A stretch of 64,000 bases of DNA. It comes from Candidatus Obscuribacterales bacterium (lineage in GTDB: Bacteria; Cyanobacteriota; Vampirovibrionia; Obscuribacterales; Obscuribacteraceae). Of this stretch, positions 2,915 through 25,575 are shown piece by piece. Position numbers and translations under genes: made by a program. The stretch spans positions 3,040,001 through 3,104,000 of the forward strand of contig CBDDIJ010000003.1 in assembly GCA_965228855.1 (NCBI GenBank). Reading direction: 5' to 3'. Each line of letters opens with the position of its first letter. The first letter of the stretch is position 1. The notes under the pieces were generated by a model. That model was given only the letters and a program-made list of their open reading frames with translations, did not search any database and had not been told where the DNA came from.

Positions 2915-3787
2915 CTAGCCTCTTGAGCCGTCAGCCAACCGGGGGCGAAGATCGGTGACGCTGCCGTCGGTTCTTTGCCAAACAGCTCCAAATATGCCCC
3001 GTTCAACCAGGTCATCGTAGACAGAAAACACACATTTTCCTGGACCTACACCGGCTTCTTCCAACAATGGTTGAGTCCACTTTTGAAGAGTCATGATCCT
3101 TGGCGCACTTCCTGTGACAACCCAGATCGGAAATCCGGTTTTCAGGAAAGCACGAATTTTCGGCTCCCAATGACGTGTTTGACGGAAGTTCCCAGTGTCG
3201 ATTTCCAATAGGATACGCATCTGCTCCATTTGAGGATACGCAAATGAAATTGTCGCATCAGCTTGTTCGGCACCGAATACGATATCACCCGAAAGTTCCT
3301 TCCAGAACTCACGCCCGGTCGTAAAGTCCAGAGATTCAATGGCGCTCTGGTATTGAGCTTCCTCTAATGCCAATCGCACGTCGACTAACCGCAGGAAGTG
3401 TTCCTTATGATAAGTATGCGGCGGTCCGGTCGGAATTTCCTCCCACGAGATGCCACGATGCTGTTCGAGCGCTTTGGCACCCGCGGTGGTAAGAAAATAA
3501 ATCAGCTCAGGACGCCCACGCCCTTCCATCCGTCCACTCGAAGAACAGCCGGTGAAGCCGGCTTGCTGCAATCGTCGCAATCGCTTGCGAGCGGTTTCAT
3601 AACTGATATCGCTAAAGCAAAGCCGAGCAAGCTGTGTGGACGTCACGGTTCTGTGCAAATAAAGTTGCAACAGCGCCAGCAAATCACGCTCCATCAAAAC
3701 TAACGACTTTTTCCGAACCTTACTCCGCGCAACCCGCTCAACCATAGACACAGATCTACCGCCTCTGAATTCCCTATGCAAATACAA
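2915..3787 (-). CDS. Replication-relaxation (Replic_Relax-like) protein: wHTH plus PD-(D/E)XK nuclease; putative relaxase. True start may be the ATG at 3745.
   Basis: RDLLALLQLYLHRTVTSTQLARLCF...ARKRLRRL, IYFLTTAGA, HFLRLVDV, ADATI...LLEIDTG pattern; adjacent to VirD4. Confidence 0.8.
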   Translation of the reverse strand: MYLHREFRGGRSVSMVERVARSKVRKKSLVLMERDLLALLQLYLHRTVTSTQLARLCFSDISYETARKRLRRLQQAGFTGCSSSGRMEGRGRPELIYFLTTAGAKALEQHRGISWEEIPTGPPHTYHKEHFLRLVDVRLALEEAQYQSAIESLDFTTGREFWKELSGDIVFGAEQADATISFAYPQMEQMRILLEIDTGNFRQTRHWEPKIRAFLKTGFPIWVVTGSAPRIMTLQKWTQPLLEEAGVGPGKCVFSVYDDLVERGIFGAVWQRTDGSVTDLRPRLADGSRG

Positions 3788-3970
3788 CCGGAATTTCCGT
3801 GCCCCCAGATATCGCAGGACTATCTTGGGACAGCCATTCGAACTGCAACTTCAACGGCCGTATTTGTACCCCTTAAATAATTGTAGATCATGATTGCCCG
3901 ACTGACGATCACTTTGCTACCAACGACCCATAATTCTCACTTCCGGCGGTCTTCTTGAAAGGTTCAGATA

Positions 3971-4007
3971 AAACAAAAGGTCACGCGGCTTCGCAAAGCC
4001 GCGCGAC
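3971..4007 (-). terminator. Probable intrinsic terminator downstream of virD4
   Basis: Stem CGCGGCTT/AAGCCGCG followed on the minus strand by CCTTTTGTTTT. Confidence 0.7.
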
Positions 4008-4085
4008 ACCGAAACCGTCAAACCACGAGACATTCTCAGACTGTTTAGAACTCGCGCGCCGAGGTTCGCACTCGACGCGCCTGAC

Positions 4086-7000
4086 TTAGAATTCGACGCC
4101 CTGTTTCTTGCTGTGAGCCGGGTTGAAACCGAATTTGGCTACATCCGGATTCATGCTGGTCACGGTCGAGCGGTGATAGGGATTATTCTGTCCTGCGCCG
4201 ACAGCCTCAGCGGCGACACGCTGCGAGAGCGGTCCGGCATTGGGATTGCCGCCCGTGCCGTACGCCATGCGAGGGTCCACCGGAGCCTGAGCCGGAGCTT
4301 GACCTTGAGCTTGGGCTTGGGCATATGGATTGGCTGCTCCCATTTGCTGAGCGGCTTCCGCCATCGAAGGACGCTTGGACGGTAGGTTCTCACGCGAGGT
4401 CACTTCGAGCCCACCGTAGCGAGGCTGCGGTCTGCCTGTTTCCTTTCTTGCTCCCATTGGTCCGACCACTTGTTGTTGGACCGCCTGGATAGTGTCTTCG
4501 TGATTCGCTTGTTGCTGCGGCGCCGCGAGACTCGGGTTGAGCGACGGGATTGCCGACTGCGCTACCGGAGCTGCTGCAACGACATCAATCTTCTTGCCGC
4601 ACTCAATACAGAACTTGCCTTTGCCGGCATGCTTGCCACAGTGAGGGCAGTCTCTTTCGGAACCGGCGGGAGCCGATGGAGCCGCTTGCATCGGTTCGAC
4701 CACTGAACCGGTCACTGCAGTCTCGATTTGACCATACGGTTGTTGAGCGAACCCGCTGCCGGGGTTGGGGTCAAAGCTCTGTCCGGCGTTGTAACCATCG
4801 CCGATATTGCCGTTGCCACCTGCGTATCCATACGGATCTGTAGTCGGTCCCATCGCTTGAGCCGCTGCTCTCGACGCCGCTTGCAGGTTGGCGAGCTGGT
4901 CATTGCCATAGCCCTGAGCGAAGCCAGGCGCCGCATGCGGTGCCATTCCTTGCTGTGCTGCTACCGTGCCAGCGGCAAAAGCGCCGGCGGTTTCAGACAT
5001 CATGCGACCTGCGTTGGCGAAATCGCCTGCACCATGAGGTACCTGAGCAAAAGCTTGCGGTTGATGCTGCTGCATATTGGTCTGTTCAGGAGCCCTGCCA
5101 AGCAAGCTGCCGATTACCGATTGCACTCCTGTGGTGACCACCTGAGCCAGCTGATTTCCGACAGAACTCGCCGTGGGCGCAACTGGCTCCTGAGGCTGGT
5201 GCTGATGCATGCCGTTCTGTGGAGCTTGCTGGCCGTTTGGACCATCGTGGAAAACATTATTGATTGCGTCTGCTGCGTTCGGAACAGACATGAATGTCGG
5301 CACCGCATTCGGTGACGGAGCGCCGGGAATCGGAGCAGCATGACCTGGTCCATCGCCGCGGCGAACCGAGACGTTGTGCAACAAGTGCAATCTGGCAATT
5401 TCTTCAATACCTCTCAAGTCGACCATGAAAGGTTTTGTTTCGCCGAATTCTGGGTCGCCTGCAGGCGCCAGGTAAACGAGCGCGTGCTGCTTCTCCATCC
5501 GTTTAATTGTGTCAGAGTCAACTCGCGCAACTACTTGTTGCGAGTGAATTCTGTTCCAACTGGACGGGAAGATACCGAAACCTGTCGATTGATAGTGGTC
5601 TGCAATACCAGGGACGATAATGGCGTGCTTGCCGATTTCTTCAGAGAAGAATGCTGCCGTTTGTTCGTCCGCGTTGTGCAGACAGACACGAATTGCGCAG
5701 TTAGAGAATATGGTTCGCATTTCAGCTTCGGCGTTCTTGCCGCCGGAAGTGATCTGAGAGATGTTCTGGAGGATGAGTGTCAATCCGCCGTTGGCACCCC
5801 GGACGATAGCTGACAATCTGCCTGCTACGTCGATGTTCAAGGTTTGATATTCGTCGAAGAATGCGAACAATGGCAGGACCGACTTGGTACCGTATCTGGT
5901 GTGCAAAGCTTGTTGCATTTGATAGACGAAGCACGCAGCTAGAGACTCAGCGTCAGGTCCGAGTGATGCCGGCGCACCGAAGATGAGCACGGTCGGTCTG
6001 TTCATCGCTGCTTTCAAATCGATGTTCGAATATTCCGTAACCGCGAGAACGCCCGGGTTCTTAAACATACGCAGACGACCACGTACGCCCTGGATGTTCT
6101 TATCCCAGTCAGCATCGGTTCTGATGATGGACGAAAGACGCTGCGTCATTTCGCTCAACTCGGTGCCGTTGACTTCGGGTCTGTTTTTCGCCTGTCTCAA
6201 GGACTCGACGATGTTGCGACGGTTGTTGACCAGCTTCATCAAACCACGAGGGTTGCATGGAAGCTGCTCGAGTTCAGAAGCTTGACCGTTTTCATCTTCG
6301 CCGATGACCTGAACGGCGCCCCATTTGAGTAGTTGGGCAAGACCTTCGATGTAACCCATGTCACGCTCAGCCCAGTGCTGCTCTTCCGCGTCGAGTGAGT
6401 TGACGTCCTGCACAATCGAACTTGCAAATGTGTTGGGCGGCAGATCTAGAGGATTCCAGTGCACGGAATCTGTGTCGAGAGGGTTGAAGTACAGTGTGTC
6501 GAAACCGGCTTGTTGAGCCTCAGGCAACACTGTGTATTTGAAACCTTCTTTCTTTTCGTCGAGGTTCGGGTCGTTAGCCTTAGCTTCCAACGCGATGACG
6601 ACACAAGGTTTAGCCAACAAAGATTTGATGATGGCGCGCATCAAGGTCGTTTTACCGGAACCGGACGGCGCTACGATGAACATGTTTTTGTTTGGCAGGC
6701 GACCCATCGGAATCGTGATCGGCAGGTGCGTTCTTGCCAGGAAACCAAACGGAATGACAACGCCGTCGACTTCTTCCCAGGTCGCTTCCGGATTGCGCTT
6801 GCCCATGCGACCGTGACGGCGCAAGTTAGGCGGGCAGAGGAACGACCGCTCGTAATCGCGAGGCGTGAGCATGCCGGACGGGGGATTGAAAGTTCTGATT
6901 GTCTGCCAGGGGAAGAGGCGCTTCTTGTGCGCCGCCGCGATAATCAACGCAAGCAAGACGAGCGTCGGCAGCAAAATCGCGATCGACGTAGCGTCAAGGA

Positions 7001-7595
7001 AACCGTGATTTTTCTTCGGTCCGTGCTGCGCGCCGGCACCGTGCATCTGCGGGTGCGCGTGCGGAATTCCTTCAAGGCGAAGATTTTTGCCTTGCTTCAT
7101 CTGTCCGGCTGTGGGAGGTCGACCTTGAGTCGAATCAAGTGTGGTCTGACCTTGATAGGCGCCCATTTGATGACCGCCGCCAGGAGCTTGAGGAAGTCCG
7201 GGAACTTGTGAGCCGCCACCTGAAAGAATTGTCGCACCGGGCTGGATGAGAGGATCCGCACCAGCGCCGCCTTGCATCATACCTTGCTGCATGGGGGGCA
7301 TGCCCTGACCTTGCATCATCGGCATTTGCTGCATTGGCATTTGTTGCATCGGCATCTGCTGCATCGGCATCGGATGCCCGGTAGCCGGATCGATTGCCCC
7401 AGCCTGATACATTGGAGAGCCGCCCGCCATCGGGTATCCGCCGGCTTGAAGTTGACCGCCGTAGTGCTGCTGGGGAAGCATAGCGCCAAGCTGTTGGCGC
7501 TTCTCGTACTCTTTTGCGGAGATAGTCTCGCCAGTATCTACGTCCTTGTAGCAGACTGTCTGTCCTTTCTCATTAATAACTGCTTTGTACGTCAT
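4086..7595 (-). CDS. VirD4/TraG/TraD-like type IV coupling ATPase with long low-complexity N- and C-terminal extensions and a zinc ribbon
   Basis: TM helix (IAILLPTLVLLALIIAAA), Walker A APSGSGKT, Walker B FFDEYQ, WNPLD, RGANGGLTLILQNISQI, IFSNC, TAAFFSEEIG; CPHC..CIEC near the C-terminus. Confidence 0.9.
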   Translation of the reverse strand: MTYKAVINEKGQTVCYKDVDTGETISAKEYEKRQQLGAMLPQQHYGGQLQAGGYPMAGGSPMYQAGAIDPATGHPMPMQQMPMQQMPMQQMPMMQGQGMPPMQQGMMQGGAGADPLIQPGATILSGGGSQVPGLPQAPGGGHQMGAYQGQTTLDSTQGRPPTAGQMKQGKNLRLEGIPHAHPQMHGAGAQHGPKKNHGFLDATSIAILLPTLVLLALIIAAAHKKRLFPWQTIRTFNPPSGMLTPRDYERSFLCPPNLRRHGRMGKRNPEATWEEVDGVVIPFGFLARTHLPITIPMGRLPNKNMFIVAPSGSGKTTLMRAIIKSLLAKPCVVIALEAKANDPNLDEKKEGFKYTVLPEAQQAGFDTLYFNPLDTDSVHWNPLDLPPNTFASSIVQDVNSLDAEEQHWAERDMGYIEGLAQLLKWGAVQVIGEDENGQASELEQLPCNPRGLMKLVNNRRNIVESLRQAKNRPEVNGTELSEMTQRLSSIIRTDADWDKNIQGVRGRLRMFKNPGVLAVTEYSNIDLKAAMNRPTVLIFGAPASLGPDAESLAACFVYQMQQALHTRYGTKSVLPLFAFFDEYQTLNIDVAGRLSAIVRGANGGLTLILQNISQITSGGKNAEAEMRTIFSNCAIRVCLHNADEQTAAFFSEEIGKHAIIVPGIADHYQSTGFGIFPSSWNRIHSQQVVARVDSDTIKRMEKQHALVYLAPAGDPEFGETKPFMVDLRGIEEIARLHLLHNVSVRRGDGPGHAAPIPGAPSPNAVPTFMSVPNAADAINNVFHDGPNGQQAPQNGMHQHQPQEPVAPTASSVGNQLAQVVTTGVQSVIGSLLGRAPEQTNMQQHQPQAFAQVPHGAGDFANAGRMMSETAGAFAAGTVAAQQGMAPHAAPGFAQGYGNDQLANLQAASRAAAQAMGPTTDPYGYAGGNGNIGDGYNAGQSFDPNPGSGFAQQPYGQIETAVTGSVVEPMQAAPSAPAGSERDCPHCGKHAGKGKFCIECGKKIDVVAAAPVAQSAIPSLNPSLAAPQQQANHEDTIQAVQQQVVGPMGARKETGRPQPRYGGLEVTSRENLPSKRPSMAEAAQQMGAANPYAQAQAQGQAPAQAPVDPRMAYGTGGNPNAGPLSQRVAAEAVGAGQNNPYHRSTVTSMNPDVAKFGFNPAHSKKQGVEF

Positions 7596-7777: not shown

Positions 7778-8425
7778 TTAAATGCCAAAACCTTTTCCAG
7801 CTTCTCCCATACCGGCGATCTGCAATTTGCGATCCGGGGTCATTTTGACGAGATACTCGAATTTGACTTCGTGAACGTTTTGTCCTTTACCAGGCACATC
7901 TAGAATCTGCTTTCCTTCGACCAGCACTACGACCGCCCCATCCGGGCGTTGTTCTCCGATTTTCACAGAGTTCGTAATAAATTGGCTCACGGCGCCGGAT
8001 TGAGCGATAGTCTGAGCCATCTCCGGCGACCAGATGTTCGCGCGGTATGCTTGAGCGCACTCCGGCGACATATATTGAATCGCTTTCTCCTGGCTGCTTC
8101 CAGCAGTTTTCGCGCTGAAATCCCACGCCATCGGCAACCAATCACTGATCAAACGAAGAGCATCGTCAGCATTGGTTGGAGCAACCTGGGGTTCGGCCGT
8201 AAGCGGCGCCGCGCCTGGCTGCTGCGCCTGCGCATTGTATGCAGCAGCGCCGCGTCCACCGGTGACGTCCGGATGGTCGGCCCATTTGGGGCGTTGTTTG
8301 GCGCTTTGTTGCGGTCGCTGTTCAGGCTGAAGCAGGAGCGTGAAAAACATTCCCACCATGGCGCCGGCAAAGCCCACGATGATCAATGTCAGCTTATATT
8401 TTTCACCCGCCTGATAGTCGAACAT
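7778..8425 (-). CDS. VirB8/TraE-like bitopic membrane protein (NTF2-like fold predicted)
   Basis: Single N-terminal TM, linker, then DWLPMAWDFSAKT...QYMSPE helices and a beta-rich C-terminus; located between virB4 and virD4. Confidence 0.55.
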   Translation of the reverse strand: MFDYQAGEKYKLTLIIVGFAGAMVGMFFTLLLQPEQRPQQSAKQRPKWADHPDVTGGRGAAAYNAQAQQPGAAPLTAEPQVAPTNADDALRLISDWLPMAWDFSAKTAGSSQEKAIQYMSPECAQAYRANIWSPEMAQTIAQSGAVSQFITNSVKIGEQRPDGAVVVLVEGKQILDVPGKGQNVHEVKFEYLVKMTPDRKLQIAGMGEAGKGFGI

Positions 8426-8513: not shown

Positions 8514-11339
8514 CTAACCAGCGAGCAGCAAGTCGGGTGTAAACGTTTCCGGCGTATAGCCCTGACCAAGCAAATGGCAGGCCCAACGCGCGTCTCCGCG
8601 GCACAATTCAATCATGCGCGAGCGCATCGGCTGGTCCGTGTTAGGTTCAGTCGTTGCGACCCAGTACATGAAACGCGGGACCACAAGCCTGACTACACCA
8701 CGCGACATCTTGTGGTAGACAAGAAACGCGTCTGAATATTCTCTGTTTTTTCTAGTCAAATGACCGATCGAATTCATCTCCGCCGGCGTCAAACCGCAGG
8801 AATCACGAATGAGATCGAAGTTGCTCGGGTCGTTACCGAGAATGATCTTGAGTGAGCTGTTTGTCGCCAGGTTTCGAGCGCGCTCATCGCGCAACAAGTC
8901 GCCCAGCTCCTGGGAGATTCCGATGAACAGTAGACCTAAGTGGCGTGATGTACGCGAGGCGTCTTCAACCAGAGTCTTACCACCCTCGTATCTGAGCAGT
9001 CGCCACAACTCGTCTATGCAAAAAACAAATCGCGCCGGCTTGCCGGATTTCATCTGCTGCTGCTTGTGCTCGGCTGCGTTTCTCAAAACGAAGTCTGAAA
9101 CGAACAGAGTGACCACAGCCTCAAGAGTCTTATCGTGAGCCAGATCTGACGTATCGAACACAATCAATCTCGCGTTCGACGGAATCGACGTCGGTCCGTC
9201 GAAAAGTTTTCCGTAGATTGCGCCTCGGGTGTAGAGCGACAATCTGTTGACCAGGTCCTCGCAAGTCTCACCACGACGAGTACCTTTGCTCTTCTCGGCT
9301 TCTAGCTTGAGCCACTCGATCAAGTCTGACTCAATCGGCACGCGACCTTTCGTCGCGCACTCTCGATAAATCGCCTGAATGCCCATCATCAAGACCGGCT
9401 TCTCATCCTTGGTCATTGCTTGTTCGCCACGCTCACCGAGCATGACCGAATGGAAATTCAAAATCTTGATGATATGCGACTCGGGTGGATTGGCCGGGTC
9501 GATTTGCTTTCCGTCGGGACCGGCAAGCGGCAAGTCATATAGGTTTAAACAGACCTGACCATCGGGACCGAGTCTGATGTAAGAGGTTTCATCGTAAACC
9601 TCGGCGAGCATTCTGTATGAGCCGGAACGGTCAATAATCACCACTTTGGCGCCGGCAAGCATCTTCATCTGAATGATCTGCTGTGCCACCATGGATTTAC
9701 CTTCACCAGGCTGACCGAAGACTACACAGAGAGCGTTTGGCAGTTTTTCATCGTATGGATTCAGGAAAACCGGCTCCAATGTTTCTTTAGAGAAACCGAG
9801 CCAACTGCCCTTCGTCTCAGAGCCGAGCTTGGCATGAACAAATGGGAATGAGTTGCGCACGGTCGGCGTTCTCACAGCCTTTCCGCGGCGAGTGACATCA
9901 AGTCCCATGCCCGGAAGTGAACCGATGAAAAGACCCTTCTGCTCGCGATAGCCCACTACGAAACGGGCGCCGCGGCACTGAGGACCTGCGGTTCGCACGA
10001 GTTCCGTCGCACGGTTTAGCTCCTCTAGCGACTCGCCGAAGAGGGTGAAATAGATCGCGTAGTTGAACACTTCCATGTTGGATGTGTACAGTTCCGATCC
10101 GATATGCGCCGCTTCCTGTGCCTTTTCCGCTTCTTCCTGGTTAGGAGTCGAGCGTTGTCCCATCAAACTTTGATAGGTGTTCGCCGTGGCTTGCGCTTGT
10201 TTGCGCTGCATGGATTTTCTGAAAACTTCTTTGTCGAGCTTGTGAGCGTAGATGTTCATTCGCCACTCGCAGTTCAAGCGCAGAAGCGGCGAGAGCCACA
10301 ATGGACCGGTTCTTTCAGGGAGACGGCTCATATAAAGCGTGCGAATAAACAGCCCTTCTTTTTCCTTCGCATCCTCGACTGTTAGACTGGCGAGGTCCGA
10401 GATTCGCGCGTAATCCGGATTGCTGAAATCGTACTCCGATTCGGTCAATTGCTGACGAATCGTGGCTGGCTCCATATCAGGGAAAACGCGTCTCACTTTC
10501 GCAGAGACCGGCTGAGTGGTCGGTCTGAGCGGCTCAGGAAGCAGATCGTCAGTGACCTGTCCGAGTTTCGGATTCAGTTCTTTATAGAGCATTCTGAAAT
10601 ATTCGAGCGCGGAAACCGGACGGCCGGTCATTCCGCAGGCACCGAGCGTGCCCATGTAACCTTGCGCGCGTTGCAACAAAGTCGCGACGTTTTTCATATG
10701 CGCGCCCACGCTCTGACGAGCTGCGGTGTTTCCGAAGACGTCCTTGAGCGTCGTAGTGAAGCCTTCGATAAAACCGGCTTTCTTGGCTGGTTTTTCTTTG
10801 GGCGGACGATAGCAGAATGTGACGAAGAACTTCAATTCCGGAATAAAATTCCGAGATAAGAGGCTGGCCTGGTCGTTCTCAACGCACTTCGCTACGTACT
10901 CGAGAAATTCGTCTTTGACTACTTCGACCGGATGCTTCTCGAAATATTCGCGCTTAGTTGTGTTGTGGCAAACAATCGTGAATTGCACAGAAGTATCGAT
11001 ACCATTCAGGAATCCCGTGAAGTGGTTCATCATTGAGACCAGGCGCACTTCATCGAATCCGCTGACGTGAACGCCATCGACTTCGAACATCGTTCTATAA
11101 CTGCCGTCTTTCAGAACGATGATACCAAGTCCGGTGGCATCGTCCTGGAACAAATCCCAGAGAGGAAGAAGTCCGGCAGCTGGAGGGTGAGGTCTGGGAA
11201 CAGCCATTGAAGGCAGTTTCGCCATTGCCGCAGCAACTTTCGGGTCAAGCTTTTCCTTCTCGCCTTTCTTTAGAAGCGGAAGGCCAAGCTCTGGCTGTTT
11301 TGATCTGGGAAGAGAAGTCGTCATTTTTGACTGTACCAT
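8514..11339 (-). CDS. VirB4-like type IV secretion ATPase
   Basis: GIIVLKDG N-terminus, PVFLNPY, Walker A GQPGEGKS, VVIID, LIVFDTSDL, Walker B FCIDELW, SRHLG...ISQE, NSSLKIIL. Confidence 0.92.
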   Translation of the reverse strand: MVQSKMTTSLPRSKQPELGLPLLKKGEKEKLDPKVAAAMAKLPSMAVPRPHPPAAGLLPLWDLFQDDATGLGIIVLKDGSYRTMFEVDGVHVSGFDEVRLVSMMNHFTGFLNGIDTSVQFTIVCHNTTKREYFEKHPVEVVKDEFLEYVAKCVENDQASLLSRNFIPELKFFVTFCYRPPKEKPAKKAGFIEGFTTTLKDVFGNTAARQSVGAHMKNVATLLQRAQGYMGTLGACGMTGRPVSALEYFRMLYKELNPKLGQVTDDLLPEPLRPTTQPVSAKVRRVFPDMEPATIRQQLTESEYDFSNPDYARISDLASLTVEDAKEKEGLFIRTLYMSRLPERTGPLWLSPLLRLNCEWRMNIYAHKLDKEVFRKSMQRKQAQATANTYQSLMGQRSTPNQEEAEKAQEAAHIGSELYTSNMEVFNYAIYFTLFGESLEELNRATELVRTAGPQCRGARFVVGYREQKGLFIGSLPGMGLDVTRRGKAVRTPTVRNSFPFVHAKLGSETKGSWLGFSKETLEPVFLNPYDEKLPNALCVVFGQPGEGKSMVAQQIIQMKMLAGAKVVIIDRSGSYRMLAEVYDETSYIRLGPDGQVCLNLYDLPLAGPDGKQIDPANPPESHIIKILNFHSVMLGERGEQAMTKDEKPVLMMGIQAIYRECATKGRVPIESDLIEWLKLEAEKSKGTRRGETCEDLVNRLSLYTRGAIYGKLFDGPTSIPSNARLIVFDTSDLAHDKTLEAVVTLFVSDFVLRNAAEHKQQQMKSGKPARFVFCIDELWRLLRYEGGKTLVEDASRTSRHLGLLFIGISQELGDLLRDERARNLATNSSLKIILGNDPSNFDLIRDSCGLTPAEMNSIGHLTRKNREYSDAFLVYHKMSRGVVRLVVPRFMYWVATTEPNTDQPMRSRMIELCRGDARWACHLLGQGYTPETFTPDLLLAG

Positions 11340-16700: not shown

Positions 16701-19433
16701 TGTGGTGACACCAGGAGTTACAGCACCAGCTTCTTTGCCGTCGATCTTGCCATCACCGGGCTTGAGTGGCGGAGGCAGTTTGGCCTCAGGAGTGAGCGAC
16801 GCGTCGACGCTGTCGTCTCCAATACCGGTAGTCGGGTCGATGTTACGTGCTTGAGTTGGCTGACCGGTAGATCTGCCCAATCCTTGAATTGTAGAGTCAG
16901 GATTATTTGTCGCTGGTTTACTTTCTGCACCTGGTCTGCGGAGCGGAACCGAAATTGTTCCTTCCGGACCAGCAGCGAGATTCACACCCGGCGTCTTTGT
17001 CGAAAGGTTGGCATTCGTTTGCGGTTTCAAGTCTCCGTCTTTCTTGTCAGCTCCACCAGTGGTGGCACCCGGAGCTAGTTTCACACCAGGAACACCGCCG
17101 CCGGCAGCACCTTCTTCGACATCCATGTTGAGCGGTCTACCATCCGGACCGAGGTTCGCGGCGCCATCTTTTTTGCCGTCACCGGAAAGGGCAGCCAGAT
17201 CTTTGGCACCAGGAGTCGGAGGCGTCACACCGAGTTTGTTACCGCCGGGACCTCCAGGCTTGATGGTTTTGTCGACGGGAGTGGTGATGTCTTTTTGCCC
17301 TTCCGGACCAGCCGCACCTTTTCCGTCAACTCCTTTTCCTGGAGGAACCAGACCTTTGTTCAAAGCGGAATTCAGGTCAGCGCCAGGGTTCTTGGTCTTA
17401 TCGTCGTTGTTGCCGGTTTTTACTTCCTTGCCGTCAACGAGTTGCGGACCTTTCGGTTGTTTATCCTTATCTTTGTCATCGCCGACGATACCAGCGTTGA
17501 TTTCGTTTTCCAATTTCTTCGCGGCCATAGCGGCTTGTTCCGCTTCGGCTCTTGCGCGCTTCGCTTCCTCGTCGCTACCGCCGGTTGGTGTTCTGCCAAC
17601 TCCGGCAGCTCCAAGTGCTGCTGCGCCGGCACCTGCTGCTGCTGCTACACCAGCACCCATTGCTCCTTTTTTGGCAGCATCGCCAATCGGATTGAGCGGT
17701 GCTCCGGCTGCTGACGCAGCGGTCTCCGGCACACCAGGTTTCTTAGCGTCTTCAGGTTTCTTCGGAGGTGTTACGCCAGGTTTTGCCCCAGCAGGACCAT
17801 CACCAGGTTTAATCGGCTTGCCATCGGCACCGATTCCGGTACCATCTCCTTTATCGCCCTTAGGACCTTTTGGTTCACCGTGAGCTGCATCACGAATGCC
17901 TTTGAGCAAGTGCGGATCTCTTGGTCCGTGAGCCAGACCTTTTAGTTCGGCTTTCTTCGACATCTCAGGTCCGCGAGCCGCACCGGTGGTGGTATCGCCG
18001 CCGATGAACTTCGCAAGCTGCATTCCGCGCTGAGAGAGTGTGTCTCCGAGAAATTTACCACCCTTCATCAAGCCGCCCGAAATTAGTCCGGCAGAAATAA
18101 AGTCCGACATCGGGCTGATCTGAGCGCGTGCCAGGAAGGACGGCACCTGGATCATCATCTGCAGAATACCGACAGCAAGGATGATTTTACCCCAGGGGTT
18201 GAAGTCCGAAAGAATCATGATGACGAAGATCTTGAGAAGACCAACCCAGACAAATGTCCAGAGGCTGACTTCAACGAATGATCTGACGAAACCGGATGTG
18301 ACGTTTTCAGTGTCCGGAGTCGCGAAAAATACAATAAAGATCGGAGCGAACATATACTGCGCGGTGAGCAGCGCTGTTTGAATCGCTTTCAAAACCAGGA
18401 TGTACACTAGCTCGGCGATCAGGATGCCGCCCAATATAAGGTAGATGATCAAGCCGGCGAATGCGACCAGGTTTCCTACGGTACCCAGTGCGATACCACC
18501 AGGACCTGCACCGAGTAGTCCACCGAATGCCTGACCGGCAACTGGTGCCGTTGCGTTAGCGATTAGACCTGCGCCAGCCATCAAGCCGCCTTTGACCGCT
18601 GCAGCCATGGCAGCATCAAGGGCGGAGACCTGGTCAGCAGAATTGAAATAAACAGCTTTGATCATTTCGTTCGTGATTTGAATTTCGAACGCGTAGATCG
18701 TCGGCCATGCAAGCATCAAACCTGCGGTGAAGATTAAACGACCGACAGCACCGACCAGGTTGCCACCGCCTCTCCAGGCTGCTTCAGCCCAGTACTTCCA
18801 TATACACAAGATAAAGAGGAGGAGGAGAAGGTCGACCGCGATACCGTACATGACGTCTGCACCCTGACGAATGAAGGGCGAGATATCATCGGCACTTCCG
18901 CCGCCTGGAACGTTGCTCATTCCATTAACTGCGACGTTCGGGTTGAGAACGAAAACGCGGAGGAAACCGGTCAAGAATTGCACGGCATCAGAAACCCAGC
19001 CGTTGATAAATTCAGTCAACCACTTACCAATCAGCTGACCGATGTTTGCGAACAGTTGCGAGATGATGTCATCACCCCAGAATGTATGCAAGCCGACATA
19101 GGTGTCGTTGTACTGTCTGAAGTTATCCGTCAGAAGAGCTTCTACGTTCTGGATAACGATGTCTTTGTTTTGCTCGGCGGCCTGGTTGACGTAGTTAGTC
19201 TGCGGTTCATCAGGAAACGCACGAGCGGTCGCATCGGTACCTTGTGCTCCAGGGCTCAGTGCGCCGGAACCTGGGTCTGCCGGCCATGCTTGACCGGGCG
19301 GCGGTGGCTCAGTTTGAGCGAATGCTGCCGAGAAACCGAAAGGCGCCAGCAGCGTGAAAATTGCTGCGAGCGCGACGACCGACTTGACGGTGCGATTGCG
19401 TATTGTGGCTAGGATTGAAGCTGGCTTGAGCAC
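13734..19433 (-). CDS. Extended VirB6/TrbL-like polytopic membrane protein with ~1450-aa Gly/Pro-rich C-terminal extension
   Basis: Signal-like N-terminus (AFA|Q) and multi-TM core (LLLLFILCIW, GRLIFTAGLML, MFAPIFIVFFATPDT...FVRSFVEVSLWTFVW) typical of VirB6-family channels; T4SS context. Confidence 0.75.
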   Translation of the reverse strand: MLKPASILATIRNRTVKSVVALAAIFTLLAPFGFSAAFAQTEPPPPGQAWPADPGSGALSPGAQGTDATARAFPDEPQTNYVNQAAEQNKDIVIQNVEALLTDNFRQYNDTYVGLHTFWGDDIISQLFANIGQLIGKWLTEFINGWVSDAVQFLTGFLRVFVLNPNVAVNGMSNVPGGGSADDISPFIRQGADVMYGIAVDLLLLLFILCIWKYWAEAAWRGGGNLVGAVGRLIFTAGLMLAWPTIYAFEIQITNEMIKAVYFNSADQVSALDAAMAAAVKGGLMAGAGLIANATAPVAGQAFGGLLGAGPGGIALGTVGNLVAFAGLIIYLILGGILIAELVYILVLKAIQTALLTAQYMFAPIFIVFFATPDTENVTSGFVRSFVEVSLWTFVWVGLLKIFVIMILSDFNPWGKIILAVGILQMMIQVPSFLARAQISPMSDFISAGLISGGLMKGGKFLGDTLSQRGMQLAKFIGGDTTTGAARGPEMSKKAELKGLAHGPRDPHLLKGIRDAAHGEPKGPKGDKGDGTGIGADGKPIKPGDGPAGAKPGVTPPKKPEDAKKPGVPETAASAAGAPLNPIGDAAKKGAMGAGVAAAAGAGAAALGAAGVGRTPTGGSDEEAKRARAEAEQAAMAAKKLENEINAGIVGDDKDKDKQPKGPQLVDGKEVKTGNNDDKTKNPGADLNSALNKGLVPPGKGVDGKGAAGPEGQKDITTPVDKTIKPGGPGGNKLGVTPPTPGAKDLAALSGDGKKDGAANLGPDGRPLNMDVEEGAAGGGVPGVKLAPGATTGGADKKDGDLKPQTNANLSTKTPGVNLAAGPEGTISVPLRRPGAESKPATNNPDSTIQGLGRSTGQPTQARNIDPTTGIGDDSVDASLTPEAKLPPPLKPGDGKIDGKEAGAVTPGVTTAGADGKVPVTVSLPGRRVQAPTGNLGKAAEGSEVVTPGGTADGQVRIQPGLTPAGGDNVNAQQTVTGEIKPPTGTPGATTDGGKVEIQPTVAAGGIPGVNLGGVIPVPAARRAGTGRTGAQAPGGFIDPGWEPDNSSPIRPMNLTSRAGGFGGGGGNGGDGGGGGMHTPPDDGRTPHGQAPASPHEQRLQATQSVVPMNNYQQAGYRWIPPRGISGGIRLAQDVTLGPSTSGEAELMGNAKGQTFHVRHAEGMDPDRLALQMMTAGYATLVGNDPVAYDAARQSAIAAGADKPKGFAQRMASGILSYNGGSWAQTANAKQAFQQALYTESVAGSQAYVNGQPGNAYTEYLNQRYGPMSDEQQAWGVHIMTDAGSPESSWHWGHIPATETLVRNAIPINATSRAIATNATVLRSRPWEQRAAIAGCSSYLEARKNDEIPDAHPMVADAWTGREAQLLPPAVVNTATALSAEFGDDACRDVKMVNDVANIVGAGADVGSYVQTYQALKAVQGIGNSVKNGGGGFAGGGGGVSPIQPRGGGGGGGSPMVSTNVSGTVLPGGGGGMEQVVDVPVDVDGGASPVGPLNLGGITPPIMGPGMGPGTRANVTFRQAPNQGMGTPPTQQMRMQGSSHPSGTGPIHINNVGGVGTPPPIINEQNVEVEIVPGHTPTPPPIDPSLIKVPPAAGSRPSEIRANVTFTAGGNNGGGSNNLGTQRVRFEAPLRDSTPQVNMQMGGYNDPGNSGQVIEQHVEAELMFGKTGDIGGVSAGEVEANLRNMVNQYDTTAEMAYNVVYDLHSAGFSYEQLSDPKIASVAMQVMATDKSMAQTAAVTAGKLGGNNFSLVRTQVVQAMMDCDPKWNQNNIDPKSIFAAEAIHGATQEYRTELLAEYADDISNSPEPQEHPVVKLQSYPTKNFVNQIISHPDYSGKPGASLHKQVVRVIREKVDQRLAGKDPYYGGSGTYQDYDDQSSYSQSGGSGGGGGSRRYYDPDD

Positions 19434-19994
19434 GGGGTGTTTTAATTTGCGAAAGAAACTGGAGTGGATTATGTCTGAAGTCTAAGCCTGGCGAGAAAAT
19501 CTGTCATTGGGGAAATTCCCATCAAAGGCGGGGCGAGCGAGCATTTCTTTCGGCTTTTTTGGGGCAAGCAAAAACGGTTTTTGCCCCGATAGATCTGCAT
19601 ATAAGTAAGAAGCCCATTAATAGGCAATTTCCAACACTCTTTTCGAAAATTTGTCAGAAATTTTTTCGAGCATCGACAAGCATTAAACTTGGTCAAAACC
19701 GAAGATTTAATCTGAACAGCTCAGGCTGCAAAGCACACAGCTATTTTCAGCAGAAATTATGTCGCTCGCAGGGACACTAGCCTAGCCAGCCAGGTCCAAG
19801 GCGCTTAGAGGAAGACAGACAGCCAGCCCTGAAATCACGGAAGGACCGACACATAATGCCGATCCCATCCGAGCCGTTCGACACAAAATTTGTGACGAGC
19901 TTGATGATTTAGTTGTAGAACTCTCAGACGTTAGTCGCAGAACAACTCAACACTTAGCATTCAGACTAAGGCATCAAGCCGATCGAGCCTTTAG

Positions 19995-20508: not shown

Positions 20509-21186
20509 TTACTTGTGGTGGTTTATGATTTGACCGTAAACATCGGAGTTGGAGCTAAATCCAGAGCTCGTAGGTCTGGTCGATCCCGGTGAGAAGAATT
20601 GATTTCCGTACGATGCGACTTTCGGCTGTGCGTTCAGGCTCGATGGTTGTTTTGGTTTGACCAATCTGCCGGATACAGCACTTCGAGTTTGCGCCGGGCG
20701 TTTTGGAACCATTCGTCCGGACAAACTCTTGTTCGAACTCGGGGCTGTCATCTGCTTCGGCGCTGCCGGTGGAAGCGATTGGGCGACCACTGGCGCATTT
20801 TGTTGGGGTGCTCCGAATCCGGGATTGAACGGGGTTGCCGTCAAAGACGGTTTCGGAACGATATTTGCCTGGGGCTGACCATACGACATGCTGGGATGTA
20901 CGCTGGTCGCGACTCGCGGCTGAACCGGTTGTGGCTTCGGCGCTGGTTTGAGCACACTCGGATCGACACCGAGGAAGCTTGCTGCTTTAGGGACAGCTCC
21001 GTGTCCAACGCTCGTGGTGGGAGGATTGAAATTCTGATAGTGACGTTTCTCAAACTGTTGCGGTCCCCATTTGTTGGGTTCGAAGTCGAAACGTGCTCCG
21101 CGTTGACCTTGAGCCATCGCCGGGTCTACAGCGCCGACTGCAAGAGTGGCGAGTGTCAAAATTGAGAGGGTAATGATGTTCTTCAT
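20509..21186 (-). CDS. Secreted Pro/Ser/Gln-rich hypothetical protein
   Basis: Sec signal peptide (PAMA|Q), low-complexity basic body; co-oriented upstream of pilin A. Confidence 0.75.
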   Translation of the reverse strand: MKNIITLSILTLATLAVGAVDPAMAQGQRGARFDFEPNKWGPQQFEKRHYQNFNPPTTSVGHGAVPKAASFLGVDPSVLKPAPKPQPVQPRVATSVHPSMSYGQPQANIVPKPSLTATPFNPGFGAPQQNAPVVAQSLPPAAPKQMTAPSSNKSLSGRMVPKRPAQTRSAVSGRLVKPKQPSSLNAQPKVASYGNQFFSPGSTRPTSSGFSSNSDVYGQIINHHK

Positions 21187-21197
21187 TGCTGTAAATC

Positions 21198-21956
21198 CTA
21201 AAAACGAAATCCGTTTCTCATCCCGAAACCTGTCATCGTCAGACCTGTGAAACCTAAACCGAAGAGCGAACCAGGTCTTCTGAGTTGCGTGGCCAGTAGC
21301 CCGGCTCCGAGTCCTGCAGTTCCCGCAAGGTTGTTGGCGAAGCCGCCTCTGCGAGTGTCGCGTCTTACGATAGGGGTCTTAGATCCTCCGGTTAGAGTTT
21401 GGGTTTGACTGGAATTTCCGTATTGCGGTGCATTGTTGTTGCTCGCGAAACCTGGATTGAGCCAGTCGGGTTGACCGATTGCGTACTGACCTTGAGCGCC
21501 GGGCATCTGGTTCGGTTGGTTGAACGGGGTAAATTGACCAGGTGCACCCATTGCTTGTTGGCCGTACTGCGGCGTTTGATTTGACAGCTGTGTATTCCCA
21601 AGAAGTGAATCGAATGCTGCTCTGCGCATGTCCTTTGCAGACATGATGCCGCTTGCCGGATTCAAATTCATATGTCCAGCATCAGGAGTCATCTCCGTGA
21701 GCTGCCCAGGGGTAGCACTCATCATCATTCCTGCACCGGCATCTGCCTGGGGCACCACCTCTGGTGGCAGGAAGGAATCTTGAGAATAATTAGCTCCCAT
21801 GGATTGATCGAGAGAAGGAGATTGAGCTTCGAAGCCCTGCGCCAGGACCGGTGTCGAAAGCTGGCTCAAGAAGCCAACCGTAAGAACGACTGCAAGCATT
21901 TGCTTGCGACCATTCTTTTTCGATTCCGTGTGTCTAGCTTGCATCTCGTTTTCCAA
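21198..21956 (-). CDS. Secreted Gln/Gly/Met-rich hypothetical protein with Gly-zipper-like hydrophobic C-terminus
   Basis: Signal peptide (VLA|Q); C-terminal GTAGLGAGLLA...LFGLGFTGLTMTGFG. Confidence 0.75.
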   Translation of the reverse strand: MENEMQARHTESKKNGRKQMLAVVLTVGFLSQLSTPVLAQGFEAQSPSLDQSMGANYSQDSFLPPEVVPQADAGAGMMMSATPGQLTEMTPDAGHMNLNPASGIMSAKDMRRAAFDSLLGNTQLSNQTPQYGQQAMGAPGQFTPFNQPNQMPGAQGQYAIGQPDWLNPGFASNNNAPQYGNSSQTQTLTGGSKTPIVRRDTRRGGFANNLAGTAGLGAGLLATQLRRPGSLFGLGFTGLTMTGFGMRNGFRF

Positions 21957-22412
21957 ATCGTTGGGTTGCCGTCGAACGTGAGTTCATAGTACGAAATCGC
22001 TCATCGGACGAACATCGGTGGTTTTCCCCCCACTATGGGAAAATCCCCCCTCCCTTCATCCATATATAATTTTGTCTACTAGAAAATATCGTGCGTCTCA
22101 AAGCTCAAGAGAGAGCACCTGTAGGTCTTTCGAGAGCCCACGGAAGTCAAGCGCCACTAGTTTGGCAGTCCTGCGTAGACAGAAATTTTGTTTTCCGTCA
22201 TCGCAGGATAGACAATTAGAGCTTTACAAATGCCTAAAGACAGCATCATCGTCGGATCCGAGTTCGTATGCTCTCCAAGGCATGTATGCCGCGGACGCCT
22301 GGCGGCTGCGGTCAGGCACTCGTTAGGCACTCGTTCCAAATCGCACTCAAGAGCCAGCTACCTCAAAATCGGCTCCGACACCTCAGAGCGTCCCGCGGCG
22401 GCGCTTAGCGTT

Positions 22413-23137: not shown

Positions 23138-23560
23138 TTAGAGACCGCCGCCGAGACCGCCGTAGTTGTTGATGGCGAATGTACCGATCAAGTGAACCGC
23201 TGTCGGTCCGCCGAATCCTACACCCAAGCCTTTGGCGACGTTCATTGCGGATTCTCCGCCGTCTCTCTGACCGAATGCGATCTTCATTCCTGCCAGTGAC
23301 GAAGGCACTGTGGATAGCGCTGTGACAACACGGGAGATGTCACGGGCGGTGTCATAACCAAAGTCAGCCAACTGACCTACTTCGTTCGATTGTCCGTAAC
23401 GTGGGTCGACCGGAGCGCCGACCAGACCTTGTGCGTGTGCGGCTTGGTCATAGATACCGAAGGCCATGAGCACCAGCTGAGGCGCCAGGAGGAAACCGAC
23501 GCGAGTGGCGACTTTGAACTTGTGCGAGGACTTAATCTCTTTAAGCGATAGCTTAGCCAT
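23138..23560 (-). CDS. VirB2/TrbC-like pilin, copy B
   Basis: Identical to copy A from SSHKFK to the C-terminus (130 aa); AAGGAG SD. Confidence 0.7.
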   Translation of the reverse strand: MAKLSLKEIKSSHKFKVATRVGFLLAPQLVLMAFGIYDQAAHAQGLVGAPVDPRYGQSNEVGQLADFGYDTARDISRVVTALSTVPSSLAGMKIAFGQRDGGESAMNVAKGLGVGFGGPTAVHLIGTFAINNYGGLGGGL

Positions 23561-23700
23561 TGTTGAATCTCCTTGAGTCTATTTTTACGGTTTTTGAAAA
23601 GTCTTTTTTTGTTTAGGACTGAGTCCTGTGTGCTGTTCGGACTGTTGTCCTGAGTTTTGCGATTGCGAGGACTTGCGTCCTTGAGGTGATGAACTAAGAG

Positions 23701-24696
23701 TTAGAAGTTGGTGATGATTGCCGTTGGCAGTAGAAGTTGATCTCTCTTTTGCGGGTTGGTATTCGCGGGATCAAACTGTGCGTAGGGGAAACCAAAATCA
23801 GTTGATTTGCTCGAGTATTGCGGCAGTCTTCTCATGCCTTGACCAAACTCTGTCGTTTGTTGAGCGGTCAGACCGAGGATGCCGTTTTGTCTCGTCGAGG
23901 ACAGACCGTAGTCTTGGACCGTTGAGCCTGTCGGAATCGTAGTTCCGCCGGCTTGGAATCTTTGACCGCCGCCCAGGTCGATGGCGCTGTTTCTCCAGCC
24001 GTTACCTGACGGTACACCGGTTACTGCACCCCAACCAGCCCAGGGTCCTAATCTTTCGATGTTGTCCTGGCTTCCGTCTGTACCGCCGCCACCGATGATG
24101 GAGTTTCTGCCGCGATATTCATATTGATGGGATTCTTGTCCGCCTCGTCTGACTGTCGGGATGGAGGTGTAATAGCCACCGGTTCCTGGAAGTCCGCCAG
24201 CGGGATTGATGTTGATTTCGTCAGCCGGGTTGATGTAGCCCATCGGAGCTTGCATTGAACCCGGGTCAGGACCAGGCGTTGACGGAGGTGCCGGAATGAA
24301 CGGTGTCAGAGCCGGTCCCAGAACTCCTGGAGGAGACTGAACTGCTGGGTTGATTGGCAGTGGAATACCCGAAGTGCTGTTGTCGATCTGGTTTGCCGGA
24401 ATTGACGGCACCCAGGGAAGGAGTGTGAGCGGCATACCAGCCTGACCAGGATGAACTCCGGCAGGTGTAGGACCGTCGCCCATCGCAGGCGGTTGACCTT
24501 CCGGCGGAGGTACAAAGGGTGCCGAGCTCGGAGCGCCATCCAACAACGGCGTACGGATTGTTTCAACCGGTGCTCCGGGCATTACTCCCGGTTGCACTGG
24601 ATTGCCGGGAAACGGCTGTGCATTTGCCGCTGCCGAGATGCTGACGCTGAGGGCAGCTGCTGCAAATAATGTGGAGAGAATCTTGGACTTACGCAT
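23701..24696 (-). CDS. Secreted Pro/Gly-rich hypothetical protein (paralog of 24757-25575)
   Basis: Signal peptide (ANA|Q), AGGAGG SD; shares motifs with the neighbouring gene. Confidence 0.78.
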   Translation of the reverse strand: MRKSKILSTLFAAAALSVSISAAANAQPFPGNPVQPGVMPGAPVETIRTPLLDGAPSSAPFVPPPEGQPPAMGDGPTPAGVHPGQAGMPLTLLPWVPSIPANQIDNSTSGIPLPINPAVQSPPGVLGPALTPFIPAPPSTPGPDPGSMQAPMGYINPADEININPAGGLPGTGGYYTSIPTVRRGGQESHQYEYRGRNSIIGGGGTDGSQDNIERLGPWAGWGAVTGVPSGNGWRNSAIDLGGGQRFQAGGTTIPTGSTVQDYGLSSTRQNGILGLTAQQTTEFGQGMRRLPQYSSKSTDFGFPYAQFDPANTNPQKRDQLLLPTAIITNF

Positions 24697-24756
24697 TGTT
24701 GGCCTCCTGAAGCCATATACAACTAGTGGTTTTGGCGATGCCGTCGTCGGCGGTGC

Positions 24757-25575
24757 CTAGTATGGAGCGATGGTGAGTCGAGCTCTGAGGTTTTCCCCTT
24801 TGAAAAAGGTTCTGTTTCCATTGAGGTCGGTGGTGGATTGAGCGCCTGGCAAATTCGCCGATCGGTTTGCTTGACCTCTTTGTCCCGGTGACTGTTGATT
24901 TCGTGGTCCGTCTTCCGATGACTGAGGTGCTTTCTGGAGGTTCGACTTTTGGCTGAGTCGTTCGCCGAAGTCGGTGGTTTGCGAGCCTCCTGTGCCTCTC
25001 ATGAAGCTGCGGAGTCCGTGATCTTCACTTGTCTGTCCGCCCCATCTTTGTATAGGAGCACTTCCCGAGATTCCGCCGCCGCTGTTTATGTTTGTCACCG
25101 TGACCGGTGGTTGATAAAAGTCCGGAGGGGAGTCGATGCTTCCAGGGTCGGAGGTCGGATAGATGGTCGGAGGAGTCAGGTACCCTGCTGCGGCGGCTGT
25201 AGCTGCAGCTTTGCCGTCTTGTCCCGGCGGAATCAATGGCATGCTGACGTGAGATGCCGGCGTCGGGACACCGTAACCGGCGTGACCGGTGTTGATGCCC
25301 ATCGGCGCATAGCCGTCTCCAATCGGGGGGGCCTGTCCTTGAGGAGGTGCAGAGTAAGGGGGCTGCGTCGAACCGTTTTCGACGTTCGGCAACCACATGC
25401 TAGAGTCTGCATCATAATTAGGATTAGGATTCCAGACCTGGGCGTTGGCATTGCCGGTCAGAGAGACTACAGCCACAAGTGCCAGCGTTGCCGCTAACAT
25501 CAATTTGCCGTTTCTCGTCTGAGCCTTGTTCACTTTGTTCTCCGTTTTGTAGGTTTTCCGGTTCGGCAACGTCAT
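24757..25575 (-). CDS. Secreted Pro/Gly-rich hypothetical protein (paralog of 23701-24696)
   Basis: Signal peptide (ANA|Q); PPQGQAPPIGDG, DPGS, RWGGQ, QTTDFG motifs. Confidence 0.78.
   Translation of the reverse strand: MTLPNRKTYKTENKVNKAQTRNGKLMLAATLALVAVVSLTGNANAQVWNPNPNYDADSSMWLPNVENGSTQPPYSAPPQGQAPPIGDGYAPMGINTGHAGYGVPTPASHVSMPLIPPGQDGKAAATAAAAGYLTPPTIYPTSDPGSIDSPPDFYQPPVTVTNINSGGGISGSAPIQRWGGQTSEDHGLRSFMRGTGGSQTTDFGERLSQKSNLQKAPQSSEDGPRNQQSPGQRGQANRSANLPGAQSTTDLNGNRTFFKGENLRARLTIAPY

Follow-up and report, generated by a model that had tools for sequence, protein, structure and literature searches.

Sequence evidence for an order-wide, two-locus type IV secretion system fixed in Obscuribacterales chromosomes

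A chromosomal type IV secretion system (T4SS) that is lineage-wide and vertically inherited has been described in the Patescibacteria (Quinonero-Coronel et al. 2025, PMC12102498), where, in the accessible parts of that study, a relaxase of any kind is reported from only 103 of 3,035 genomes and is considered mostly lost. The T4SSs of Vampirovibrio chlorellavorus belong to mating-pair formation (MPF) class MPF_T, and two of the three lie on plasmids, according to the accessible text of Soo et al. 2015 (PMC4451040). Here, we present a computational analysis of a T4SS locus from Candidatus Obscuribacterales bacterium (GCA_965228855.1, contig CBDDIJ010000003.1), which occupies positions 2915..25575 of the window, meaning the whole stretch of 64,000 nt that was analysed. 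Protein sequences and gene distribution indicate a real, order-wide and domesticated T4SS encoded at two loci, of which the second, paralogous and likewise order-wide, is newly recognised here. No published description of the Obscuribacterales system was found, subscription literature being largely beyond reach.

As an earlier reading made from the letters of the window (the sequence-only reading) had held, locus 1 consists of 13 co-oriented open reading frames (ORFs) on the minus strand, and the motifs quoted for VirB4 (GQPGEGKS/CIDE, both intact) and VirD4 (APSGSGKT/FDEYQ) are read in these ORFs at the positions given below. The window proteins were scanned with Pfam and NCBIfam profiles, and nine of the 13 had no family match apart from a weak NCBIfam match of s4 (E 0.033). 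Sequence comparison supports reading the set as real genes of T4SS type, namely VirB4, VirD4, PrgI, a VirB6-like and a VirB8-fold protein, a MOB_C-family nuclease, two pilin-like subunits, a Zn/TPR protein and four secreted proteins:

2915..3787, minus strand: MOB_C/Replic_Relax-family nuclease (PF13814) with an N-terminal winged helix-turn-helix (wHTH) and a PD-(D/E)xK-type domain; true start probably the ATG at 3745
4086..7595, minus strand: VirD4-type coupling ATPase (PF02534, T4SS-DNA_transf, 4.4e-19) with long low-complexity extensions at both ends and a double zinc ribbon at the C terminus
7778..8425, minus strand: VirB8/DotI-fold bitopic protein (AlphaFold2 model, pLDDT 85.7)
8514..11339, minus strand: VirB4 ATPase (paralogue 1, VirB4-1), by Pfam/NCBIfam; identity 74-99% over full-length matches in order relatives
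11372..11785, minus strand: PrgI/VirB3-like membrane protein
12002..12703, minus strand: Zn-ribbon/TPR protein (DUF2225-like), probable cytoplasmic adaptor; its paralogue in locus 2 occupies the corresponding position
13734..19433, minus strand: extended VirB6-like protein with signal peptide, periplasmic domain, transmembrane bundle (residues 194-435) and low-complexity tail of ~1,400 aa
20042..20458, minus strand: pilin-like subunit 1, signal peptide followed by a helical hairpin; VirB2-like by language-model neighbours
20509..21186, minus strand: s1, secreted Pro/Ser-rich protein of no family, seen in 30 of 70 loci (a count restricted by the 10-kb flank)
21198..21956, minus strand: s2, secreted Gly/Gln-rich protein of no family (sequence, no Pfam match)
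23138..23560, minus strand: pilin-like subunit 2, a recent duplicate of subunit 1 (96% aa, 89% nt)
23701..24696, minus strand: s3, secreted Pro/Gly-rich protein with a conserved C-terminal half ending in Phe
24757..25575, minus strand: s4, secreted paralogue of s3 (BLASTP E 1e-11 and alignment)

Like the T4SS of Patescibacteria, the locus joins VirB4, PrgI and VirB6 (and VirB8) to VirB2-like pilins, often multiple, and has neither VirB9 nor VirB11 (PMC12102498, accessible parts). It differs in its diderm host, in having VirD4 inside the operon, in an order-wide MOB_C nuclease and in its two paralogous loci, and the pilin is near-invariant in Obscuribacterales whereas an identity of ~25% is given for Patescibacteria in the same text (PMC12102498). 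The combination of a monoderm-type core with a VirB2 pilin, which the sequence-only reading took to be unusual and which is approached here by a monoderm-type inner-membrane set with a pilin-like subunit, has precedents in Patescibacteria and in the Thermoleophilia elements discussed below.

At a threshold of E<=1e-100, VirB4-1 is present in all order relatives but one (26 of 27) and in none of 13 genomes from other orders in the class. The nuclease has the same distribution (26/27 and 0/13), both genes being missing from G020 alone (85% complete), and it is kept even where it has moved 20-35 kb off or onto another contig (G011, G017, G024, G025). Among 70 loci encoding close VirB4 relatives, for which counts are limited by the 10-kb flank and by contig ends, the order virB6-duf2225-prgI-virB4-virB8-virD4 is kept wherever visible, with prgI in 68 loci, virB8 in 67, duf2225 in 66, virD4 in 64, virB6 in 57, pilin in 40 and nuclease in 27. 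By label, 37 of these loci are Obscuribacterales/Obscuribacter, 15 Melainabacteria, 10 cyanobacterial, 5 'bacterium' and 3 from other phyla, and we suspect mislabelling or mis-binning behind the off-group labels. The upstream virB6/pilin block is not adjacent in a more distant family (G025). Inheritance is vertical: tree distances of VirB4 and RpoC2 across 21 genomes correlate with r 0.91 and a slope of 0.97 (0 of 2,000 permutations as high), and the two trees share 13 of 18 splits and 10 of 11 strongly supported ones, with no strong conflict. Purifying selection is evident in the nine genes present in L004, as the nonsynonymous rate (dN) lies far below the synonymous rate (dS) wherever dS is measurable (VirB4 0.002/0.18; nuclease 0.002/0.28), and the reading frames of the locus are intact.

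The locus is bordered on the s4 side by one further gene:

26403..27137, plus strand: divergent coiled-coil gene cc, possibly part of the system, adjoining s4 and outside the span of locus 1

Of 12 relative stretches, 10 have this gene next to s4, 9 of them together with rarA, and the other two stop at contig ends. The flanks had been described as housekeeping genes; the rarA/cc side is conserved, and on the oppF side the arrangement is looser and often inverted in relatives. The window has no tRNA gene, and none of the 17 tyrosine recombinase matches in the genome lies within ~160 kb of the locus; the proposed absence of an integrase or att site stands to that extent, serine recombinases and transposases not having been searched genome-wide. 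The host genome (G000, with C2, C3 and C5 as its contigs in the coordinates below) encodes LpxC and BamA, and the host is therefore diderm, which had been thought probable. Together, the sequence data support a T4SS that is chromosomally fixed, order-wide and vertically inherited in a diderm host, in agreement with the earlier view of a lineage-specific system distinct from an integrative and conjugative element (ICE).

Locus 2 (G000:C2:1990062-2007731) encodes two secreted proteins, a lipoprotein, two VirB6-like proteins, DUF2225, PrgI, a second VirB4 (VirB4-2) and two VirB8-like proteins. VirB4-2 is 28% identical to VirB4-1 and has orthologues in 34 of 35 order genomes. The lipoprotein (667 aa, Cys19 nearly invariant) is of TolC-helix/Ig type, with weak OEP and DUF4352 matches, and beside the locus a divergent operon encodes two TPR proteins, two small membrane proteins and a secreted VirB10(TrbI)-like protein, the whole region spanning C2:1983354-2007731 (L071, L072). 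All 27 order relatives have the VirB10-like gene and 23 have the lipoprotein, and neither was found in the 13 genomes outside the order; in 17 of 27 relatives the VirB10-like gene lies on the same contig within ~25 kb of VirB4-2, and in the remaining 10 the two are on separate contigs or VirB4-2 is missing. The host genome has three TrbI-like matches away from locus 1, one of them over the cut-off and one linked to locus 2. It also has six matches to VirB11, which among the diderm classes is required in MPF_T only, all under the cut-off and none near either locus. Separate canonical copies of VirB9 occur in two of 27 order relatives. The extra canonical VirB9/VirB10 genes of G008 and G011 probably belong to separate MPF_T-type elements.

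Because VirB10-like genes and the OEP/Ig lipoprotein are encoded elsewhere in the genome, the earlier statement that no outer-membrane core is present holds for locus 1 only. The accompanying idea that s1-s4 replace such a core is not supported: each has a Sec-type signal peptide and a Pro/Gly-rich sequence that lacks Cys beyond residue 30 and matches no family, and nothing supports them as an outer-membrane channel. They had been called four novel secreted proteins, which agrees with their signal peptides and lack of family but overlooks that s3 and s4 are paralogous. The locus-2 VirB10-like protein and the OEP/Ig lipoprotein appear by sequence to be better outer-membrane candidates. Orphan T4SS parts in the host genome comprise a VirB4 without Walker A (C2:642113-644323), a VirB6-like pair (C3:87870-95287) and a third VirB8 (C2:2071200-2072108), and extra VirB4-2 copies (59-70%) stand alone in G001, G004, G005 and G130 and in tandem in G122.

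The identities of the inner-membrane proteins of locus 1 differ in firmness. VirB4 matched P-loop_TraG (2.4e-17) and, both under the cut-off, the NCBIfam profiles TraC-F (3e-53) and CD1110-type (2e-46). The model of 7778-8425 aligned in VIA searches with DotI at Z 14.2 (root-mean-square deviation 3.0, 129 aligned), with TraM, TrwG and VirB8 at 13.0-13.5 and with PrgL at 12.8 (Foldseek E 4e-6), so this is a VirB8-fold protein, as had been proposed. The PrgI identity is weakly supported by sequence, since PF12666 was matched by 4 of 29 homologues (best E 0.0014) and the best reference ORFs for its profile are Thermoleophilia PrgIs, at E 0.05-0.4. The VirB6-like assignment was strengthened by six transmembrane segments seen in hydropathy and by ESM neighbours of residues 60-470 (TrbL_3/4/5 at 0.90-0.92), and the DUF2225 match remained under the cut-off (E 9.4e-4). 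Thus, the inner-membrane set VirB3/VirB6/VirB8 plus VirD4 is present, with PrgI-type VirB3 and TrbL-type VirB6 resting on weak matches. Two small stand-alone proteins elsewhere in the genome contain the N-terminal, periplasmic domain of VirB6 from locus 1 (C3:1670064-1670597, C3:3339165-3339833). Sequence-profile searches of the PDB, made with alignments of the VirB8-like protein, pilin, nuclease, VirB10-like protein and lipoprotein, produced no meaningful match, and a scan of viral contigs with protein P0150 gave no match.

For the nuclease, the earlier assignment to Replic_Relax was confirmed (PF13814, E 7e-11, 43 bits against a cut-off of 25.3). Residues D177, E195, D197 and K210 are invariant in 20 of 20 aligned homologues, as are Y63 and Y126 in the 20-sequence alignment, and the acidic metal-binding triad is D-E-D, not the D-E-E of MOB_C. 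In the accessible parts of the two sources, MOB_C relaxases are PD-(D/E)xK enzymes that carry a DEE motif, and one of them cuts with no covalent intermediate detectable (PMC6736028, PMC12857230); transfer by the MOB_C relaxase TraX requires Y181 (PMC6736028). In VirD4, Walker A, Walker B and CxxC..CxxC are conserved in 55 of 55 full-length homologues.

The two pilin-like subunits are likely VirB2 homologues, a judgement based on structure and language models: a hairpin (H65-95/H102-129) is predicted at pLDDT 63, and the ESM neighbours are DUF4134 (0.90), DUF2976 (0.88) and TrbC (0.88), all of which we take to be conjugative pilin families. A DUF4134 gene stands upstream of VirB4 in a Bacteroidota plasmid. 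The earlier VirB2-like assignment gains from these features but not from fold or family searches, in which the best VIA match (Z 7.2) was to generic hairpins, Foldseek found nothing at E<=0.001, there was no specific Pfam match, and hhalign failed to match the pilin to R388 TrwL or to a Thermoleophilia pilin. Subunit 1 is 80-97% identical in 17 main-clade homologues of relatives, and its codon adaptation index places it at the 99th percentile among 4,666 ORFs, a ribosomal-protein-like bias, with the nuclease at the 5th. The two subunits differ by dN 0.023 and dS 0.73, copy number ranges from one to three in relatives and five of the 11 informative stretches from relatives repeat the split layout of the window; dual pilin cassettes are accordingly no defining feature of the system. 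The mature part or start of the pilin is also fused behind other N-terminal domains (C3:504177-504812, C3:868465-871377, C5:128288-131584, C2:182989-184031), two of these domains being Cys-rich, and the fusions are possible minor pilins or decoys.

The placement of VirB4 was examined in a maximum-likelihood tree of 54 rows without a VirD4 outgroup, in which sampling is sparse and MPF_I, MPF_G and Ced/Ted have no identified references. An earlier tree with a VirD4 outgroup, which was not monophyletic, had been thinned by 21 representatives, with P0161 dropped because it had no Walker A match; the 54-row tree was thinned further. Both paralogues fall with 18 environmental proteins in a 24-row clade (support 97/92), a grouping also seen in the earlier tree. 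This clade adjoins the FATA and FA references (joint node 94/93) and is separate from MPF_F, B, T and C, and a branch (99/98) divides eight FATA/archaeal references from both paralogues. The nesting of VirB4 in a described MPF class, which the sequence-only reading had named as grounds for refutation, was not seen in this tree: VirB4 stands beside, not within, the sampled FATA clade and outside the clade with the one labelled Patescibacteria row. On the sequences compared, the system belongs neither to MPF_FATA as sampled nor to the Patescibacteria clade, the latter being represented by that single row. With MPF_FATA systems carrying MOB_C (Embleya plasmid NZ_CP108778, pCF10) it shares the module order, a PrgI-type VirB3, a TrbL-type VirB6 and a VirB8 fold common to PrgL; it is unlike them in having no wall hydrolase among the 13 genes, a pilin-like gene, a diderm host, non-mobility and a VirB4 that is 20-26% identical to the plasmid matches listed.

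VirB4 proteins of Thermoleophilia lie in the clade sister to VirB4-1 (94/95), whose named members are Solirubrobacteraceae; organism names came up for six of 30 clusters of environmental VirB4 relatives, and most rows of the 24-row clade thus carry no label. Their putatively mobile loci (L112-L181) read VirD4-PASTA-pilin-VirB6-like-PrgI-VirB4 beside genes for SSB, primase and an ECF-like (extracytoplasmic function) sigma factor, and share with locus 1 the order pilin (TrbC E 1.5e-4)-VirB6-like-PrgI-VirB4. They differ in their monoderm host, in a PASTA protein and a probable hydrolase, in having no Replic_Relax in the stretches scanned and in an identity of 25-29%; no paper describing T4SS elements of this type was found. 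V. chlorellavorus and cyanobacterial MPF_C systems belong to the same class or phylum as our host, and MPF_C also has a VirB10-like gene; the profiles of the locus gave no match to Nostoc MPF_C accessory proteins among the top hits. Approximately unbiased (AU) tests rejected neither a grouping of VirB4-1 with MPF_C (p 0.118; a single long-branch MPF_C reference) nor one with VirB4-2 (p 0.296), results compatible with duplication as well as with two captures, and an origin of VirB4-1 from a monoderm-type lineage related to the Thermoleophilia elements is no more than probable.

Genomes of other orders in the class carry a different chromosomal cluster (L087, L088, L089, L105; families f4 and f10) of small membrane genes, a VirB4, a VirB8-sized and a large membrane protein and a HATPase protein among housekeeping genes, with weak VirB4 matches in 10 of 115 genomes that form a long-branch clade of their own; a VirD4 identity for one of its genes was ruled out, as Pfam gives HATPase_c. 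Plasmid pYRE of Myxococcus stipitatus (L074, 9732-20151), typed as non-mobilizable, carries VirD4, VirB4 and a VirB8-profile match (E 1.4e-4).

Three sub-operons of locus 1 (s2, virB6 and duf2225) are preceded by a TGGGA-N4-TCCCA palindrome that is conserved across genera:

12819..12853, no strand: doublet of palindromic operator sites upstream of the duf2225-prgI-virB4 block
19508..19521, no strand: palindromic operator site preceding virB6 and conserved among relatives in 15 distinct sequences (position weight matrix, 20.3 bits)
22014..22050, no strand: operator doublet upstream of s2

The doublet upstream of duf2225 was found in 36 of 66 relatives and in 0 of 70 control stretches, with a matrix trained partly on the same relatives. 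The genome holds 22 strict sites, below the shuffled expectation of ~34, and 18 of them, three in the locus included, lie in upstream windows that make up 18% of the sequence. This concentration upstream of genes genome-wide points to a host regulon, not previously described, with the palindrome as putative operator at ~15 promoters beyond the locus. Fourteen of the 15 other operator-linked genes were scanned with Pfam and eight matched (TPR, HEAT/LRV, acyltransferase, peptidase, AAA), none of them a DNA-repair family; the fifteenth resembles riboflavin synthase by eye. The spacing presumably resembles that of CRP/FNR-type sites. A second group of repeats lies between genes:

12875..13668, no strand: intergenic repeats, a 44-bp tandem in four copies and 131-152-bp units in four copies, with copies at four other genomic bins

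These are strain-level and unconserved beyond the closest relative, with related units at C2:163869-164265 and C5:1596061-1596308. As candidates for an origin of transfer (oriT), the repeats were rejected, being unconserved and having copies elsewhere in the genome, and the palindrome is disfavoured by its association with promoters genome-wide (~20 promoters). Farther along, window positions 28699-30333 encode a receiver domain, a LuxR-type HTH and a Ser/Thr kinase in one fusion.

We consider contact-dependent transfer of the cell's own chromosomal DNA between kin cells, in the manner of high-frequency recombination (Hfr) strains or mycobacterial distributive conjugal transfer (DCT), the most likely job of the system, with a probability of roughly 0.45. 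An ancestor of the Obscuribacterales would have captured a conjugation machine from a monoderm-type lineage related to the Thermoleophilia elements and kept it as core chromosomal equipment. VirB4, PrgI, VirB6 and VirB8 would form a channel through the inner membrane and polymerise the pilin, which is abundant. DNA would be cut by the MOB_C-type nuclease, perhaps with no covalent link to a Tyr, and pumped into the channel by VirD4. The outer membrane would be crossed by the pilus, aided by parts supplied in trans, for which the two locus-2 candidates named above are the best. We infer the DNA cargo and the direction of transfer. The reading as a whole is favoured by the shared distribution of VirB4-1 and the nuclease, the retention of the nuclease where it is displaced, the invariance of its acidic triad and Lys, the intact Walker motifs of VirD4, the RpoC2 congruence, the low dN, the keeping of a relaxase-type protein that Patescibacteria have mostly lost, and the VirB6-like/PrgI/VirB4/VirD4/Replic_Relax module order, which also occurs on an actinobacterial plasmid. 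The gonococcal genetic island (GGI), DCT, Streptomyces TraB and Ced/Ted are T4SS-type or related machines that move chromosomal DNA and not a discrete element, but their machinery differs: in the accessible parts of the sources, GGI combines MPF_F with MOB_H and sits on a variable island, DCT depends on ESX, TraB is a translocase acting alone and Ced/Ted take DNA in (PMC12857230, PMC12102498). In its working the system resembles the domesticated T4SS of Patescibacteria and, should its cargo be DNA, most likely these chromosomal transfer systems.

Several observations weigh against chromosomal transfer or against parts of its proposed mechanism. The invariant F214 of the nuclease aligns with a Tyr of the Embleya plasmid homologue (hhalign, low probability), and by this route, a comparison via that homologue and not the TraX sequence, F214 would be the position equivalent to TraX Y181. 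No conserved oriT candidate was recognised in the locus, where the intergenic repeats are strain-level and the palindrome is promoter-associated, and VirD4-type proteins serve protein secretion too. Locus 2 has neither VirD4 nor the nuclease, and its cooperation with locus 1 is hypothetical. The VirB10-like assignment comes from a weak TrbI match (E 1e-4), and 8 of the 13 genomes from other orders likewise have weak TrbI matches; VirB9 (CagX family, PF03524) had no match in the host genome, where a divergent analogue is possible. The donor lineage is not secure, given the p of 0.118 for the MPF_C grouping. A bolder form of the proposal, in which the two loci together would constitute an undescribed T4SS class, with a monoderm-derived core, a new outer-membrane conduit (a VirB10-like barrel and the TolC-helix/Ig lipoprotein replacing VirB7/VirB9) and constitutive parasexual chromosomal exchange via a tyrosine-less MOB_C nuclease, is doubtful.

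The foremost competitor, which we still hold to be rather unlikely, is a domesticated protein-secreting T4SS that delivers on contact to prey, competitors or algal and cyanobacterial neighbours, with the VirD4 tail and zinc ribbon and the Zn/TPR protein as effector adaptors and the nuclease as cargo or regulator. The large extended C-tail of VirD4 with its conserved zinc ribbon, the extended type of VirB6 and the best match of VirB8 to DotI (marginally so, tied with others) would fit, as would an operator common to TPR, HEAT/LRV-repeat and peptidase genes in an order whose genomes are rich in TPR proteins; a T4SS has also been proposed in predation for Vampirovibrio, of the same class, but one of MPF_T type (PMC4451040, accessible text). 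The nuclease, however, is single-copy, strongly conserved and tracks VirB4-1, whereas typical effectors are variable, and the locus has no effector/immunity pairs. The codon bias of the pilin against that of the nuclease, the repeated amplification of the pilin gene (1-3 copies) and the fusion of pilin domains elsewhere would suit an abundant pilus that serves in adhesion, aggregation or junctions between cells, with s1-s4 as pilus or matrix accessories and the relaxase-derived protein as operon regulator, a role for which its wHTH (HTH_20, E 0.002) and the Tyr-to-Phe change could speak. Such a structural appendage is improbable, as the invariant catalytic acidic residues and the VirD4 ATPase motifs would be superfluous for a pure regulator plus pilus.

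To DNA import for repair or nutrition we give little credence: a chromosomal system universal in its order and under strong purifying selection recalls Ced/Ted, which are described as reduced, DNA-importing T4SSs in the accessible parts of PMC12102498, but the CedD profile reached E 0.009 only against the locus proteins, VirD4 with a MOB_C nuclease is an export pair, and no DNA-repair family appeared among the 14 other operator-linked genes scanned. Lastly, a complete conjugation triad (relaxase, coupling protein and MPF) and a GC content slightly above the contig mean (0.50-0.59 versus 0.50) are what an ordinary or decaying ICE might show. That explanation fails on order-wide presence, RpoC2 congruence, the conserved rarA/cc flank and the lack of a nearby tyrosine recombinase or tRNA, and with intact frames and a host-wide operator it is already largely refuted and highly improbable.

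Conjugation machines are normally patchy passengers of genomes, whereas here one is fixed across an order, evolves at the rate of RNA polymerase and appears to sit within a host regulon. Unlike the described Patescibacteria case, it has kept both the coupling protein and the relaxase-type nuclease, and it marks a VirB4 clade, together with the Thermoleophilia elements, outside the MPF references sampled. Whatever the cargo, the system poses the structural question of how a monoderm-type T4SS core crosses an outer membrane without VirB9 and VirB11. If it is true that chromosomal DNA moves, this would be a rare heritable system of bacterial 'sex' in these uncultured, non-photosynthetic bacteria from the sister group of the cyanobacteria.

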